Origin: a virus
Taxonomy: Duplodnaviria; Caudoviricetes
Direction: 5' to 3' (one strand)
IMG/VR virus record: IMGVR_UViG_3300032250_000391
Location: 32,103 to 96,102 of that record
Length of the DNA: 64,000 nucleotides
In this document: one piece after another, positions 34,107 through 63,863 of the stretch
Layout of the letters: each line of letters opens with the position of its first letter
How positions within the stretch are numbered: the first letter of the stretch is position 1
Program-made: the position numbers and the translations under genes
Notes under the pieces: model-generated
The model's input: only the letters and a program-made list of their open reading frames with translations
Told to the model about the DNA's origin: nothing
Databases searched by the model: none

Positions 34107-34649
34107 TTATGAAGATTGAAGATAGGCGCGTAAAGTGGCGGAATTAGAATTTAAAGCGGCAATGGCCGCCCTCTCTTCGCACTCTTTAATGATTGCCTCC
34201 ATCAGACTGATATAGTCTTGGGCATCTTCTACGCCGCCTAACTCTTCTGCTTGTTGGATTGTATTTATAACTTCCTCATAGATGACTGACGCGCTATAGG
34301 AAAGGTGAATGAGTTTGCCTGCCGTGTCAATTTCATCGTCGACAGACAGACTGATAAAAATGCCATCATCGTCAAATGGCACTTCTGTAATAAAGTAGCC
34401 AAGACGATTGACGAAGTGCCAGCCTGCCTGAATGAAAACTTTGTCATCCTCTTCGCCATACGTCCAGATTGTATTTGGCGCTTGAGCCTTAACGAAGTCT
34501 AATTCTTCGCCGTAGGTTTCAAACATGATGCCATCGAATGATGCGTTATCATCCAAATGGTTTTTTATTGGTTTATATTTTTCCTCCCACATTTCGATGC
34601 TGAGGGCTTGTTTTGGCGTTTCTAACATACTTTTCTCCTTAGAATTCAC
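34107..34649 (-). CDS. Hypothetical protein
   Basis: FETYGEEL...GWHFVNRLGYFIT motif. Confidence 0.6.
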   Translation of the reverse strand: MNSKEKSMLETPKQALSIEMWEEKYKPIKNHLDDNASFDGIMFETYGEELDFVKAQAPNTIWTYGEEDDKVFIQAGWHFVNRLGYFITEVPFDDDGIFISLSVDDEIDTAGKLIHLSYSASVIYEEVINTIQQAEELGGVEDAQDYISLMEAIIKECEERAAIAALNSNSATLRAYLQSS

Positions 34650-35025
34650 TTGGCAACAACATTACGTTGTCGATTAAATAAAACTTCCACTCGCCTTCGG
34701 GACAGTCAGTAAACTCAATGCGCTTGCCTGCCAGAATACCGTCGTTGCCATCCGTCAGTTCAAGCACAGCCTCAGAGTCTTGCACGTTTAAAAAGACGGA
34801 CATAAATCGGTTTTCTGCCTGTAACTTATTAAACTCTGTAGCCATAATGTCTAAGAACCAATAAGCGCCATTGCCTGCGTTCTCAGCAAAATACTTAACG
34901 CCATCCGTATAATGAAATTTCCTATTAAAGAAGTGGCGATACCATTTTTCCGAACCTGTGAACTGCGAAAGTGAGCCTTTTAATTCTACTGCGTCTATCA
35001 TAATAGTTTCTCCTCTATAAGTCAT
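34639..35025 (-). CDS. DUF6876-like protein
   Basis: LSQFTGSE.WYRH...YTDGV...AYW.LD...FTDCP...LLPSE. Confidence 0.6.
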   Translation of the reverse strand: MTYRGETIMIDAVELKGSLSQFTGSEKWYRHFFNRKFHYTDGVKYFAENAGNGAYWFLDIMATEFNKLQAENRFMSVFLNVQDSEAVLELTDGNDGILAGKRIEFTDCPEGEWKFYLIDNVMLLPSEF

Positions 35026-35368
35026 TAGTGATTTACAATTATAATAATATATCCAGAAATTAGGCGCGTCTTAGGCAACATTTTGGCTGTTTTAGCTTAA
35101 AAAGTGACTTAAAGCGCACATTTTTGCACCCCAGTCGCAAGCCTGTTGTTTTAACGCTCTACAAGCTCACCACTAAACTTAGCTATACCGTCATATAGCT
35201 TTAATCAAATAAACGTCACACCTACGCGGGAAAATCACTTCCTACTGATTATCTTTAGGCTTATTTAATCATTTGGCTCTATAGTTTGTATGTAATAAAG
35301 TCCAATATATTAAAGACAAGCAATTTTGCCTGTTATAAATAACAAACTAACTCCTAAAGGAAATTATC

Positions 35369-35440
35369 ATGTGGACATCTCCATCAGCTACTGAAATGCG
35401 TTTTGGCTTTGAAGTTACAATGTACGTAATGAACAAGTAA
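35369..35440 (+). CDS. pqqA: PQQ precursor peptide PqqA (prophage-borne, missing from the ORF track)
   Basis: MWTSPSATEMRFGFEVTMYVMNK with the ExxxY motif (EVTMY); AAAGGA RBS; terminator follows. Confidence 0.93.
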   Translation: MWTSPSATEMRFGFEVTMYVMNK

Positions 35441-35463
35441 TTCCTTGGAATTGCTTTGAGTAA

Positions 35464-35494
35464 ACAAAAGGGGCTTACGCCCCTTTGTCTTTTG
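35464..35494. terminator. Bidirectional terminator between pqqA and 35497..36273
   Basis: AAAGGGGC-TTAC-GCCCCTTT. Confidence 0.75.
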
Positions 35495-35496
35495 CA

Positions 35497-36273
35497 CTAG
35501 ATGCCCAACTGCGAACGAGCCTTAGCTAACATCACGCTATCAGGATTCATAATCATGCGACCCTTCTCCTTGACGGTAATCTTGTAGAATGGAAACAGCA
35601 TGAACACTTGATTAGCCTGTGAACGTGCGGTACCCAAACTGTACGGTTTAGCCAACAAGTCTTGTTGCAAGTTACCTTTGTCGCCTGATGTCAGTTCATT
35701 TTCTGTCACCAACACGGTGAAGGCACGACGCATAATCTCGTTTAGCTTGCCACCCTTGCTATACCAGTCCAACAACTGAGCAGCCTTCTCACCGACTTTC
35801 TTAGCCAACTTAGTGTCGATGTCTGAAAGAATTTGTTCCTGACGAGCCTTAAGCGTATCGGCATCAAGTGTTGCGTCGGACATTTCCAATATCAAGAAGT
35901 CGCTAACTTTGTCGCCTAACTTATGCTTGATACGCTCAGATTTCTTGGAGAAGAAGATACGTTCCTTTTTCTCTTTAACTTCTTTTGGTTCTTTTGCTAC
36001 TTTTGGTGCTTTTGCTTTTTTAGCTGGCTTTTCTACGACTGCTACTTCCACCGTATCTGAGCCTGCTGGTTGCTCTGCGTAAGCGGCAATCATGGCTTCG
36101 TCTTTTACTGCACCAGCCACTGCCATTTCAATGTCTGCTTCGGATATTGACGGAATGTCCTCGATGACCGTTTCGTCAATTACATCGTCATCCAACTTAG
36201 CTAACAATTCATCCAATAAACCGCTATCTACAAAGTCCGCTTCTACTTTTTTAACAATCTGTGCTTTTGCCAT
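35497..36273 (-). CDS. Putative DNA-binding protein with C-terminal winged helix
   Basis: Acidic/Lys-rich N-terminus; KPYSLGTARSQANQ helix motif. Confidence 0.65.
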   Translation of the reverse strand: MAKAQIVKKVEADFVDSGLLDELLAKLDDDVIDETVIEDIPSISEADIEMAVAGAVKDEAMIAAYAEQPAGSDTVEVAVVEKPAKKAKAPKVAKEPKEVKEKKERIFFSKKSERIKHKLGDKVSDFLILEMSDATLDADTLKARQEQILSDIDTKLAKKVGEKAAQLLDWYSKGGKLNEIMRRAFTVLVTENELTSGDKGNLQQDLLAKPYSLGTARSQANQVFMLFPFYKITVKEKGRMIMNPDSVMLAKARSQLGI

Positions 36274-40482: not shown

Positions 40483-40559
40483 TGGTATCCCAAGAGGGAG
40501 TCGAACCCCCAACCTACGGAGTAGAAATCCGTTGCTCTATCCAATTGAGCTATTGGGAC
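40483..40559 (-). tRNA. tRNA-Arg(UCU), phage-encoded, CCA included
   Basis: GTCCCAA acceptor, ACGGA-TTTCTAC-TCCGT anticodon arm, GGTTCGACTCC T-arm. Confidence 0.92.
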
Positions 40560-57192: not shown

Positions 57193-57851
57193 AAAGAGTT
57201 ATCACCAACCGCTTTTCTCAGCTCCTCTTTAATTTTTTCCGTCTCTGTTCTAGAGAAGCCATAATATTTAGCAATAAGTTTCACATCTATTTGTTTTGGA
57301 AAGCTTGTACGAATACCTTCTTCGTGCGCCCGCTCGGCATAATTTTTTCTTTCTTCGAACTCTTGAACTAATCTAAGTCCTGGCTTAATCAAACATTTAA
57401 GAACCATTCTTGCCTTAAGGCTTAGAGTTTCAACCAACTCAAACGCATCCTCTTGTATTTCAAGTATCTCTGAAGGCGTAGCGTCTTCACTTGGAATAAT
57501 TTCGTAAAGACTAAAGTCACCATCTTCTTCGTTAGAAGCGATTTCCTCCAAACTTGTGGTCTTAACGGCTCTCGCTTGAGCGTCAATAATTTTGAGGCAT
57601 TCATTTCGCATCGCCGACACGTAGTAAGTAGAAAAGCGATTGCCTGATTGTCTGTTAAACTTTTCTACTGCGTGGCTAAAAGTCATTAAACATAACTGAA
57701 CAACGTCGTCGCATTCCATATAAAAGATACCAACAGACTCCAAAATCCTTAGAGTCTTGCCCGCAACACTATGGATAAGTTTCATGTTGTGTTCGATGCT
57801 GAACTGGTCATGTTCAGCGCCAAACTTCTCATTACGTGGAAGTGCATTCAT
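57174..57851 (-). CDS. Sigma-70-family-like protein
   Basis: Region 2-like DVVQ...AVEKFN..SGNRFSTY. Confidence 0.7.
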   Translation of the reverse strand: MNALPRNEKFGAEHDQFSIEHNMKLIHSVAGKTLRILESVGIFYMECDDVVQLCLMTFSHAVEKFNRQSGNRFSTYYVSAMRNECLKIIDAQARAVKTTSLEEIASNEEDGDFSLYEIIPSEDATPSEILEIQEDAFELVETLSLKARMVLKCLIKPGLRLVQEFEERKNYAERAHEEGIRTSFPKQIDVKLIAKYYGFSRTETEKIKEELRKAVGDNSLWHYKK

Positions 57852-59065
57852 TACACTTTACCGAAAATGCGCTGTGCCATTCCGTCAACTACTTCGCGGT
57901 CGGCTCTTGTCATCTTGTTAATAAATGCCAGACTCAAACCTGTACGCCAAGAACCACGACGCATACCGATTTTAGCGGCATTAATTAATGCGCGAGGACT
58001 AACTGGCTTGCTAATTCTGTTAGCGCCGTAAGCTTCACGAATAGATGTACCAAACTCGATAAGCTTTTCTGCATCCTCTTTTAAGATGCCAGCTTGGTTA
58101 ATTAAGATTTGAGTCTCTACCTTTGCTGGCATATATTTGACTTCAACTACAATGCCAAAACGGTCATAGTTCGCTTCGTTTTGAATGTTGGTACCTTGAT
58201 ACAGTCCAGTCTCGTCGCCAGAACCGTTTGTATTTCCTGTAGCAACAAAGCGAAAGTTTGGATGCGGTTTAATAACGCGATTAGCTTGGTCAGCCTCCTT
58301 AATTACAAGTGACTTACCCTCAAGCACGGGTTGATATACGGACAATACGGACGGAATACCGAAGTCGTATTCGTCAGCCATGTAAGTCCATCCATACTTC
58401 ATTGCTAAAGCTAATGGACCCAACTCGAATACGGTATGCCCTTCTTTGACAGTCCATTGACCGACAATGTGACTTTCTTCCGTATTGACCGTGTGCTGTA
58501 CACGAATGATTGGACGGTTAGTACGTCCAGAGACTTGCTCAAATAAAGTAGACTTACCAGTGCCTGCATGTCCCCACGCATAGACTGGAATGTTAAGCTC
58601 TAGTCCAAGTAGTACGTTTTTAAGAATTTCGATATCAAAGATGTAACCATCGTCAATCTCTGGAACCATGTCTGAATGTTGCTCGGAGCTTGATAACAAT
58701 GAAACCGATATTGGTTCGCCGCGACTATTCATGGCAGCTTTAACTTTGCCCAGTCCAAATAACTCATGCATCGAACGTTTAATTACTCCGTCTTTTGGAA
58801 CAAAAGTTGTGACGGTCGCGGCTGAAGCGCCTGCCATTTCTACAATTGCGCCATCCTCTTTCTTAGCATGTAAAAAATCGGCTAAACGACTTTTAGCTAA
58901 TTCGCTCATTAAAGGTGCATCTGGAAACTCAGCTTGATAACGCTCTACAGTCCAGCCGTCATGCTCTTTTAAATGTAGTTGAACCGCATGTACGGATGCT
59001 CCGCATATCTGACACGTAATTTTTTCACTCATGTTTTTCTCCTTAATCGTCCGGTGTTTACTCAC
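57851..59065 (-). CDS. MoxR/CbbQ-type AAA+ ATPase (CobS-like) with N-terminal C2H2 finger
   Basis: GHAGTGKS, ADEYD, ATGNT, DRF, SPR; probable start MSEKITC. Confidence 0.85.
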   Translation of the reverse strand: MSKHRTIKEKNMSEKITCQICGASVHAVQLHLKEHDGWTVERYQAEFPDAPLMSELAKSRLADFLHAKKEDGAIVEMAGASAATVTTFVPKDGVIKRSMHELFGLGKVKAAMNSRGEPISVSLLSSSEQHSDMVPEIDDGYIFDIEILKNVLLGLELNIPVYAWGHAGTGKSTLFEQVSGRTNRPIIRVQHTVNTEESHIVGQWTVKEGHTVFELGPLALAMKYGWTYMADEYDFGIPSVLSVYQPVLEGKSLVIKEADQANRVIKPHPNFRFVATGNTNGSGDETGLYQGTNIQNEANYDRFGIVVEVKYMPAKVETQILINQAGILKEDAEKLIEFGTSIREAYGANRISKPVSPRALINAAKIGMRRGSWRTGLSLAFINKMTRADREVVDGMAQRIFGKV

Positions 59066-59137
59066 TTGCTACAGTCACTATATTAGTGACTAATACTAGG
59101 CAAAACAAGTCACCAGTGACTTATTTATATAGGCAAG

Positions 59138-61210
59138 TTAATTGAGCAGTAGGTCTTTTAACTGACGCACTACCGTACTTGGTAAATCATTGATGTTTTC
59201 CAACACCACATTGCGTTTATAGTAGTCTTTAACGCTGTCCGACTGAATACCAATGCCTACAATTTTGGTACCGCTACTTTCAATCTGGCTTACAACTTTT
59301 GTTAGATTACCTCTTTGCTGATGTCCGCTACCACTACAGCACGGAGCACCGTCTGAAAGCACCATAATTATTTTTCCAGTTTCTCTACGTTGCATTAACC
59401 GACGTGCGGCTATTTCTAAACATTCACCATCGACGTTTTGAGATAGCCTAATATGCGGAAGATAAGCAAAACGTTTTTTGATGTCAATGGTCATGCGGTC
59501 ATTAAAGCTCTTAACTACTGGCATATAAATTCGGTCACGTCGTGAAAAATTACGTCCCAATTTTATTTGGGCGTCTTGAACTTCTTGCTCAGTAATTTTT
59601 GTTTTAACATCCTTGAATGAACCACGACTGTCTCCGTACACTCCATCAGTTGTAAAACCAATCACCTCGTGAGATATTTGCAATCTATCCAATACAGAGG
59701 ACATTGCATAAGCGGCTTGAGCGGCAGTGTAGATACGTCCACCTCCGGACATTGAGCCTGAACAGTCAATGACCAACGAAACAGCAACATCCTTGCTCTG
59801 ACTCTCATGCTTGCGTCGGAACACACGACTATCGTTAACTGCCAAACGTGCAAGGTTGGCGGCGTGAAGTCGTCCTGAGCGATGTCCGCTAGTCCAGCTT
59901 GAATACGAACGAGCAGTAATGGCACGCTCTAAGTCTTTTTGAAGTGGAGCGACTATGTGGTCTACCTTATTTTGCAAATCAGTTAGGTATTCTTCATACC
60001 ATCTAGTTATTTTTAATGGTTCAATGACATCTTCGTCTTTGGAGTACACAATATACTCAGAGTCTTTAAGGGCTTCGATTGTGCTGTCTGCGATAGCGCC
60101 AGAAACAGCGGCTTCAAAGTCCGCCTCTTTCATTGCTTTCTCAAACTCGTCAGGAGAAAATGTTGCACCCTTACCCCTGTCATCGCTCGCGTCAGGGTTA
60201 GAAGAAGCTTCGCCCTCTTTAGTTTCGCTATCGCCAGCAGTGTAGGTTTCATGACTGTCGTCATCATCTTTTTTGTCATCCGATTTATCTGAGCCTTCCG
60301 AGCTTTCTGAGCTTTCGCCCTTCTCGCTTTTTTCACCCTCACTATGGTCGCTTGGTTCTTTATCATCGCTTGGGTCTCTGTCATGTGTTTCATCTGAGCT
60401 TCCTTCGTCGTCTATAGGTTCATCGTCAGAGTCAGCTTCCATTTTGTCGCCAGAAGATGACCCAGTAGTATCGGCTTCCGTATCATCGGATGCTTTCTTT
60501 TTGTGAGTGCTTTTTCCACCAGTACCTCTATCTTCGGGCGTGTCACCGTCACCGCCCATCTTGTCTTTTGGTGGAGTCTCAAGCGCTGCCTTCATTTCTA
60601 CCGCAATATCGTAAGCATCCTGCGTCGACTGCATTTCGCCGATACGTCTAATTAAGTCTGCTCCACAGCGGTCGATAACTTCTTCAAACAAGTACCACTT
60701 GTCATTCATGTAATTTTGGAATAGTTTCTGACCCGCCCAAGCGCGAATGGCTGGCACCATTAAAATCATTACTGATTTTTTGAAATCCATTTTTGACATT
60801 GATTCGTTAAATGCTGGCGTTGTATAACGCTCAAGAAAGAACTCACCAACTTTCTGTAGATTCCAAGCGGAACCGTCAAACTTTTTGGTCATACAAATCT
60901 CAATACGCGGGTCTTCAAGCGTATTAAGGTAATTCATAACGCCCTCTTTATGACCTCTGTTTAATACGCCGAAATCTGAAAACAGGATATGCGCAACTTC
61001 GTGGTCTAAAAACCCTTGAATTGCATTAATAAGTGCTTCGTCGGCATTGTCCGGAATGTAAGGAAGATTAACGCGAACTGGCTTACCAGAAGAGTCACTT
61101 TGTACGAAAGCGTTGACTCCACTTTGAGTTACTTTAATTCCTTGTCCTGAGATGATTTGGGTAATTTTTACTACCGCATCCCTTAAAACATCTATTCTAC
61201 TGATTGCCAT
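59138..61210 (-). CDS. vWA-domain partner protein (CobT-like) with N-terminal HExxH
   Basis: HEVAH, acidic linker, DCSGSM MIDAS, LSDG. Confidence 0.85.
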   Translation of the reverse strand: MAISRIDVLRDAVVKITQIISGQGIKVTQSGVNAFVQSDSSGKPVRVNLPYIPDNADEALINAIQGFLDHEVAHILFSDFGVLNRGHKEGVMNYLNTLEDPRIEICMTKKFDGSAWNLQKVGEFFLERYTTPAFNESMSKMDFKKSVMILMVPAIRAWAGQKLFQNYMNDKWYLFEEVIDRCGADLIRRIGEMQSTQDAYDIAVEMKAALETPPKDKMGGDGDTPEDRGTGGKSTHKKKASDDTEADTTGSSSGDKMEADSDDEPIDDEGSSDETHDRDPSDDKEPSDHSEGEKSEKGESSESSEGSDKSDDKKDDDDSHETYTAGDSETKEGEASSNPDASDDRGKGATFSPDEFEKAMKEADFEAAVSGAIADSTIEALKDSEYIVYSKDEDVIEPLKITRWYEEYLTDLQNKVDHIVAPLQKDLERAITARSYSSWTSGHRSGRLHAANLARLAVNDSRVFRRKHESQSKDVAVSLVIDCSGSMSGGGRIYTAAQAAYAMSSVLDRLQISHEVIGFTTDGVYGDSRGSFKDVKTKITEQEVQDAQIKLGRNFSRRDRIYMPVVKSFNDRMTIDIKKRFAYLPHIRLSQNVDGECLEIAARRLMQRRETGKIIMVLSDGAPCCSGSGHQQRGNLTKVVSQIESSGTKIVGIGIQSDSVKDYYKRNVVLENINDLPSTVVRQLKDLLLN

Positions 61211-62353: not shown

Positions 62354-62533
62354 ATGAAAAACGTATACAAGATTGATGATGTAATGGCGATGCTGGATAT
62401 TAAAAGTAGAGCAACTTTTTGGCGCAAACGTAAGAGCGGCTTTATTCCTGCTCCAGACATTAATACTGGACACCCTAGATGGTTCAGAGCTACTTTAGAG
62501 AAGCACTTACCCAATCTGACCACCAACTCATAA
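62354..62533 (+). CDS. AlpA-like excisionase / recombination directionality factor, missing from the ORF track
   Basis: MKNVYKIDDVMAMLDIKSRATFWRKRKSGFIPAPDINTGHPRW...; overlaps the integrase 3' end convergently. Confidence 0.8.
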   Translation: MKNVYKIDDVMAMLDIKSRATFWRKRKSGFIPAPDINTGHPRWFRATLEKHLPNLTTNS

Positions 62534-63620
62534 GTTTAATTCGCTCTTCCAGATATTCTGCGCGATTGTAGGCTGCTCTAACTAAGTTCGTCTCTTTGTG
62601 AGCTAACTGCCTCTCGATAACATCATGAGCGAATGATGACCTTTCATTGAGAATGGTAGAAGCAAGCGCCCTGAAACCATGCACTGTCATCTTGCCTCTA
62701 TAACCTAGGCGATAAAGAGCGTAAAGCATTGTGTTCTCAGAAATAGGTTTGCCTTTTCTCAATGGTGATTGAAAAACAAATTCGTAGTCACCATTGAACA
62801 CCTCAATCTCCTTTAGTATGCTTAAAGCAAAGTCGGACAAAGGAACAACATGAGACAGATTCATTTTCATTCGTTCTTCGGGTATTACCCAGAACCGTTT
62901 ATCTTTGATTTCAGACCAACGCATGTAGCGTAACTCGCTAGAGCGGACAAAAACTAACGAGGCAAAGATAAGCCCATACCGAGTTACAGGCTCATCATAA
63001 GAGTTTATAGCTTTCATTAACGTCGCCATTTCGTCTATCTCAACGCAGTTCATGTGCTTCTTTTTTGGTGTCTGCAATACTCTAGACAATCCTGTCGCGC
63101 TATGGGACTCTATCTCTCCCTCGTCTACCAGCCAATCAAACATCTGTCTTAGGTGCGTTCCTACGCGGTGTGCCGTCTCGATAATGCCGCCCTCTTGCAC
63201 TGTCTTAACAATGCCCACTAAATGCGCTCGTTTAATAGTATCTATCGGCATGTTGCCAATTGTAGGCGACACAAACGTATCAATGCGGTAAACCACTTGT
63301 TGTTTGTGCTTAATGTTCTTAAGTTCTGGAAGTTTGTGTAAATACCACTTTCTTTTCATTTCATCGAAAGTAGGCAGTGTTTTTACCGTAACTTGGGTTA
63401 ATTCAATTTTGAAGGCGTTAAGTAGAAGTCTGGCATCGGCTACGCCAATGTCTGGGTATCTGCCGAATGTTTTGGTTTGTTGTTTACCGTTCTTTACATA
63501 ATTGAAACGCCAACTCTTTGTACCCGATGGCAAGATTTCAATATACAAGCCGTGGCCGTCTGTCAGCTTGTAAGGTTTAGCTTGAGGCTTAGAACCGTCA
63601 ATTTTCTTGTTAGTAATCAT
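62490..63620 (-). CDS. int: Tyrosine integrase (P4-like, arm-binding domain)
   Basis: YKLTDGHGL, VRSSE, HGFR, LAH, AAYNR. Confidence 0.95.
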   Translation of the reverse strand: MITNKKIDGSKPQAKPYKLTDGHGLYIEILPSGTKSWRFNYVKNGKQQTKTFGRYPDIGVADARLLLNAFKIELTQVTVKTLPTFDEMKRKWYLHKLPELKNIKHKQQVVYRIDTFVSPTIGNMPIDTIKRAHLVGIVKTVQEGGIIETAHRVGTHLRQMFDWLVDEGEIESHSATGLSRVLQTPKKKHMNCVEIDEMATLMKAINSYDEPVTRYGLIFASLVFVRSSELRYMRWSEIKDKRFWVIPEERMKMNLSHVVPLSDFALSILKEIEVFNGDYEFVFQSPLRKGKPISENTMLYALYRLGYRGKMTVHGFRALASTILNERSSFAHDVIERQLAHKETNLVRAAYNRAEYLEERIKLMSWWSDWVSASLK

Positions 63621-63789
63621 GGTATCAGTTTTCTATGCCATTAGTCATACCATGAGGATACTTGAAACAGAATGGTATAGACTGAAACATAGCTAAACAG
63701 TTGTGAACGTTGTAAGCCTTGTACTATATAGGCTATCGAAATGAAATGAAACAGTTTTGAATATTTTTGAATAGTGTGAAATAAAGCAT

Positions 63790-63863
63790 TGGAGGCGCGA
63801 GCCGGAGTCGAACCGGCCTAAACGGCTTTGCAGGCCGCGGCATAACCGCTTTGCTATCGCGCC
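63790..63863 (-). tRNA. tRNA-Cys(GCA), host; probable attachment site
   Basis: GGCGCGA acceptor, CTGCAAA anticodon loop, GGTTCGACTCC, CCA. Confidence 0.95.

Follow-up and report, generated by a model that had tools for sequence, protein, structure and literature searches.

A stand-alone pqqA cassette in a temperate prophage of a Methylotenera-like host, a putative moron or auxiliary metabolic gene

Lakes, coastal seas and sediments harbour abundant Methylophilaceae, whose entry point for C1 carbon is provided by PQQ-dependent methanol dehydrogenases, with PQQ serving as cofactor of the periplasmic MxaF- and XoxF-type enzymes. PQQ synthesis starts from the precursor peptide PqqA, which PqqD binds and in which the radical-SAM enzyme PqqE forms a cross-link; PqqB and PqqC then carry out the trimming and finishing, and one PqqA peptide is consumed per PQQ. 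Methylophilaceae genomes carry 3–12 copies of pqqA and one pqqBCDE (Beck et al. 2014, PMC4109929), and in a PQQ overproducer, orphan pqqA copies were transcribed at a high level (PMC9851590). Viral PqqA was described in Lake Baikal viruses of methylotrophs, population VP_266, and was proposed as an auxiliary metabolic gene (AMG) that helps their Methylophilaceae hosts to oxidise methanol (Coutinho et al. 2020, Microbiome 8:163, PMC7678222).

The locus described here lies in a 96,102-bp IMG/VR record (CheckV, 97% complete), of which the final 64 kb, hereafter the window, was analysed as one stretch; coordinates refer to the window unless given as record positions. Like the Baikal viruses of VP_266, the element encodes PqqA without the maturation genes. 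The Baikal virus, a metagenomic contig, also has a gene for a methanol dehydrogenase, which the window prophage lacks; the latter differs further in being temperate and integrated, its att sites being defined and its host lineage identified. The nearest genome among 361 Methylophilaceae genomes, found by searching with the left host flank of the record, is referred to as G349 (complete, 2.13 Mb).

The pqqA gene and its cassette

The ORF at 35369–35440 (plus strand, 23 codons and a stop) encodes the PQQ precursor peptide MWTSPSATEMRFGFEVTMYVMNK (23 aa), exactly as claimed in the initial annotation of this DNA. The peptide spans all 19 positions of the Pfam PqqA profile PF08042, scoring 38.8 bits (E = 8.8e-10, cut-off 21.1), and scores 34 bits with TIGR02107, the NCBIfam equivalog profile for the PQQ precursor (cut-off 20). 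The Glu/Tyr pair that is converted to PQQ is present as E15-V-T-M-Y19 (E15-x3-Y19), and the cross-linked core is intact. By these profile matches the ORF is confirmed as a genuine pqqA, and the phage PqqA would be expected to be converted to PQQ.

The ribosome-binding site and terminator assigned earlier were both recovered. A Shine-Dalgarno sequence, AAGGA, lies at 35357–35361 (plus strand), 7 nt ahead of the ATG, and the 16 nt before the ATG are the same as in three host copies from G349 (L261–L263), bar one variable base. A bidirectional intrinsic terminator occupies 35467–35494 on both strands, with an 8-bp G+C-rich stem (35467–35486), a 4-nt loop and T-runs; the stem begins 26 nt past the pqqA stop, and the plus-strand T-run reaches 35494. 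Since the stem is read as a terminator on both strands, it is also predicted to terminate the convergent phage gene at 35497–36273 (minus strand), which encodes a 258-aa protein of phrog_3932, function unknown, with no Pfam match and no match among the 361 Methylophilaceae genomes.

Upstream, the divergent phage gene at 34639–35025 (minus strand) encodes a 128-aa DUF6876 protein, and a single GCC-box match just upstream of it, at 35044–35065 (minus strand), is a candidate phage-type promoter of the class that the initial annotation had proposed for this phage. This assignment leaves approximately 300 bp as the upstream and leader region of the pqqA cassette (35066–35356, plus strand), the presumed site of its promoter. 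The region has a GC content of 35.5% versus 41.3% for the window, gave no match in a scan upstream of pqqA for the sigma-70 consensus, and bears a weak resemblance to the element found upstream of host pqqA copies. A weak leader hairpin lies at 35316–35333 (plus strand, motif ACAAGYAATYTTGCYTGT), 36–53 nt before the ATG; as a significant structure it was unsupported, with a z of -1.1 from folding alone.

All long ORFs between 22610 and 63620 lie on the minus strand, forming a block of approximately 40 kb, so that the pqqA cassette is antisense to its surroundings, in agreement with the opposite orientation reported for it. In keeping with a moron, the gene has its own terminator and is seated between two leftward phage operons, and with its leader and RBS it would form its own transcription unit. 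Given the antisense orientation and the insulating terminator, transcription of the cassette is most likely independent of the lytic programme. The reading we favour, and regard as probable from the sequence, is that pqqA acts as a self-contained moron or AMG that adds PQQ precursor in a Methylotenera-like lysogen.

Recurrence in viruses, selection and source of the variant

A tblastn search of phages, the check proposed in the initial annotation, was run against GenBank and found pqqA in nine isolates of Methylophilales/Methylophilaceae phages and in one uncultured virus. The isolates are Venkman (MT375522), MEP301 (MW452941), P19250A (KX815270), MEP401, MEP402 and four Melnitz phages (MZ577095–98). 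Most of the matching records have nothing annotated at pqqA (in Venkman, it sits between gp27 and gp26, where no gene is annotated), and the papers describing these isolates leave it unmentioned; being too short for gene callers, pqqA is missing from most annotations of cultured methylophages and from most AMG surveys. In Melnitz MZ577097, pqqA at record positions 76140–76205 (plus strand) lies beneath an opposite-strand 96-nt 'hypothetical protein', which is probably a mis-call.

For a census of IMG/VR, a degenerate DNA pattern for the core MRFGFEVTMY was used, and the motif was found in at least 120 contigs. Among the matches listed, 43 copies are antisense to both flanks and 33 are co-oriented, and local gene content separates the loci into 19 single-linkage groups, with the window prophage as a singleton. 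In the 50 longest records among the matches listed, pqqB and true pqqE were each found in none, and a methanol-dehydrogenase-type enzyme in one. A 72-kb viral contig (approximately 20% complete) carries pqqA together with a 628-aa PQQ-dependent dehydrogenase of the methanol/ethanol type (608 bits, above cut-off), a combination that the Lake Baikal virus also has.

Selection was assessed on 100 distinct viral coding sequences among the matches listed, for which pN/pS, calculated over codons not fixed by the search pattern and pooled over non-independent pairs, was 0.29, versus 0.41 for cellular copies. The ORF, start codon, Pro5 and tail are intact in all 100 sequences, and among the matches listed Pro5 is invariant in viral copies despite four codons being in use. 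These patterns indicate that viral pqqA is under purifying selection, and that the gene appears to follow host lifestyle rather than phage ancestry and to be kept intact. As expected for an AMG, a homologue of a host gene is thus recurrent and conserved in viruses of the host group. The earlier proposal of an AMG or moron boosting PQQ supply fits both the recurrence and the purifying selection in phages, with the boost itself a predicted consequence.

The same data bear on whether the cassette could be a neutral passenger, captured from the host chromosome by illegitimate recombination, conferring no benefit and maybe silent. Such a capture would be easy to envisage, since the cassette is tiny, many dispersed copies are available in the host lineage, and the consensus scan recognised no promoter. 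Additionally, five relatives of the 258-aa neighbour were found in IMG/VR, all distant (44–61% identity), and pqqA is present nowhere in their records, which suggests that the gain was recent or lineage-specific. Absence from related phages is also what a moron would show, although as a test this is coarse, the relatives being distant and of high GC content (57–62%; three of the records are complete). Recurrence across numerous unrelated phage backgrounds and in nine GenBank isolates, the intact ORF, start, Pro5 and tail with the low pN/pS, and the retention of RBS and terminator in the window all argue against a passenger, and we consider that explanation unlikely.

Comparison with the flanks of host copies, also suggested in the initial annotation, placed the closest DNA matches in the first sample among the G349 copies, at 95.7% identity over 94 nt (the CDS, the RBS region and a few bases more). 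This likeness fades within approximately 20 nt on either side of the CDS, and the upstream region and terminator sequence in the window are unlike those of the sampled host copies. Positions 4 and 6 distinguish the window peptide (S4/S6) from the common host type (T4/A6). A pattern search for Ser6 found it in 23 of 361 family genomes, with one copy each, and six Methylophilaceae genomes (2.5–2.8 Mb) encode exactly the window peptide; one chromosomal S4/S6 CDS differs from the window CDS by two synonymous changes. In eight genomes examined, the Ser6 copies occupy one conserved chromosomal locus with housekeeping neighbours (peptidase U32, ribosomal protein S4 and TonB/ExbB, from one annotated genome), and the ORFs flanking genomic Ser6 copies have no proteins in common with the window prophage. 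Ser6 was rejected as a prophage marker on the grounds of this housekeeping locus, and the idea that nonsynonymous changes in the T4/A6 host type gave rise to the window copy was dropped, because a chromosomal S4/S6 class lies two synonymous bases away. From this near-identity, the S4/S6 chromosomal class is the likely source of the phage variant.

Ser6 was found in 34 of 110 viral copies among the matches listed, versus 0 of 111 sampled genomic copies, and phages may therefore preferentially carry this variant. The leader hairpin motif is common to the window and six viral pqqA cassettes among the matches listed, and is present in none of the 111 genomic cassettes. This sharing hints at cassette swapping among phages. 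An extended proposal, which we hold to be quite unlikely, is that phages favour and exchange one version of pqqA, marked by Ser6 and the phage-type leader hairpin and tuned to win PqqD/PqqE or to evade host regulation, and that in temperate phages it would act as a lysogenic-conversion gene raising PQQ in the lysogen. If true, phage traffic would help to explain the many dispersed pqqA copies in Methylophilaceae.

The over-representation of Ser6, which lies ahead of the cross-linked core, and a leader hairpin type common only to viral cassettes would also suit interference, in which the phage peptide or leader RNA titrates PqqD/PqqE or a regulator, so that host PQQ synthesis is rewired or blocked, or the phage copy prioritised. 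We regard this as very unlikely. Six species encode precisely this peptide as a native variant on the chromosome, at a housekeeping locus, which marks it as a probable genuine substrate and not a decoy; the Glu/Tyr core is intact; and by blocking PQQ the phage would deprive itself of energy on which it depends. The peptide is therefore discussed below as a putative added precursor, carried as a moron or AMG.

Integration at tRNA-Cys and the host PQQ pathway

PHROG matches in the element include a tape measure protein, portal, large terminase, DnaE-type DNA polymerase, an exonuclease subunit, both RNR subunits, thymidylate synthase (ThyA), SbcCD and an integrase, and pqqA is flanked on either side by phage genes, with none of this being host flank, as is expected of an AMG. 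An Rfam scan of the window found two tRNAs only, one of which, the phage tRNA-Arg(UCU) at 40483–40559 (minus strand), lies between the thymidylate synthase and RNR genes. In the replication region, a CobS-like AAA+ protein (AAA_5 / CbbQ_C) and a CobT-like VWA protein are encoded as a pair at 57851–61210 (minus strand), a pair present in many large phages.

The tyrosine integrase (62490–63620, minus strand; phrog_1, E = 8.6e-59) faces the 3′ end of a tRNA-Cys(GCA) gene (about 63788–63863, minus strand), and this 3′ end carries a 17-bp att core, ATTGGAGGCGCGAGCCG (63788–63804). The only other occurrence of the core is at record positions 2696–2712, outside the window. In G349, the attB site is empty: the left flank (93.4% identity) and right flank (97.7% identity) are directly joined, and the 17-bp core at tRNA-Cys is all that the two alignments have in common, with tRNA-Gly following. 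The integrase, the tRNA-Cys, the 17-bp repeat and the empty attB together define a prophage of approximately 93.2 kb; from pqqA it is approximately 28 kb to the right att site and 64 kb to the left one. The term prophage used in the initial annotation is upheld, the element being truly temperate and integrated at tRNA-Cys. In the left host flank (record 1–2268), a putative exoprotein-like ORF of more than 756 aa, with homologues across Methylophilaceae, adjoins the left att site.

These boundaries also weigh on two further explanations. The first takes pqqA as a patch of homology, used for recombination or integration with host copies and not as a gene, since 72 nt nearly identical at up to nine chromosomal sites could support homologous exchange. 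Integration occurs at tRNA-Cys, 28 kb away, with the empty site proven, and an att site at pqqA was rejected on this basis; the likeness to host copies ends approximately 20 nt beyond the CDS, and constraint at the codon level points to a translated product, making this role highly improbable. The second, that host DNA was mis-assembled or mis-binned into the viral record, a misassembly against which the initial annotation had warned, draws on the fact that IMG/VR proviruses can hold host flanks, as this record does at both ends, but is scarcely credible for a gene that lies between phage genes deep inside an att-bounded prophage whose host flanks are precisely bounded by the empty site. The probable role thus remains that of a moron or AMG, for which the host pathway is considered next.

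Profile searches gave no match to PqqB, PqqC, PqqD or PqqE in the window, as had been stated, nor in the whole 96,102-bp record, and no match to a PQQ-dependent alcohol/methanol dehydrogenase in the whole 96,102-bp record. With tblastn, the G349 PqqB–E proteins matched nothing significant in the record or in 120 viral pqqA loci among the matches listed; as a positive control, the same queries matched 25–35 of 120 genomic pqqA loci. The host pathway was read from the relative G349, at 93–98% identity in the flanks. A host lacking pqqBCDE, which the initial annotation had named as evidence against its proposal, is not what this genome suggests: G349 carries pqqA-B-C-D-E, with PqqB–E all above their NCBIfam cut-offs. 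The pqq operon region of G349 aligns at 86.7% identity with a MAG named Methylotenera sp., and the host is accordingly taken to be Methylotenera-like, within Methylophilaceae.

G349 also contains nine dispersed pqqA copies above cut-off, which encode one identical peptide and each have their own terminator. Five other Methylophilaceae genomes carry 3–7 copies, giving an overall range of 3–9 per genome, alongside the published 3–12 (PMC4109929), and the several near-identical family copies mentioned in the initial annotation are in line with these counts. Two of the G349 copies (L261 and L263, of L260–L267) share a repeated context of 715 nt at 90% identity.

Proposed function and comparison with known systems

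Since the phage is without maturation genes, the 23-aa product could act only as extra substrate for the host PqqD/PqqE, PqqB and PqqC. Under the favoured reading, the cassette would be expressed in the lysogen as a moron, possibly in lytic growth too, and added or sustained precursor supply would feed into methanol-derived energy. The promoter, the timing of expression, and the gains in PQQ and in fitness are steps that we infer. A tenth copy may bring little to a host that perhaps has nine already, and because PQQ is recycled, the supply of precursor is not necessarily limiting for as long as an infection lasts. Were the role correct, a phage gene feeding the sole consumable step of PQQ synthesis would tie infection or lysogeny to methanol turnover, and the prophage provides a temperate example with an exact integration site, in a host lineage that has cultured members.

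By analogy, the arrangement resembles cyanophage psbA (D1), in that the phage would supply a consumable part of a host energy system and the host machinery the rest. The psbA gene, however, codes for a full enzyme subunit and is known to be expressed in infected cells, whereas the product here would be a sacrificial peptide substrate. With the orphan pqqA cassettes of Methylophilaceae chromosomes, the window cassette has in common the peptide family, a near-identical RBS and the layout of one gene with its own terminator; it differs in sitting in a mobile prophage. With the cultured methylophages it shares a stand-alone 23-codon pqqA (peptide 73–96% identical), which in Venkman, as in the window, is antisense to all neighbours; these isolates, of 35–142 kb, differ in having no local gene context in common with the window prophage. 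Phage pqqA has been known since 2020, and what is new here is its temperate context and exact integration site, to which are added the host lineage and the likely chromosomal source of the variant.
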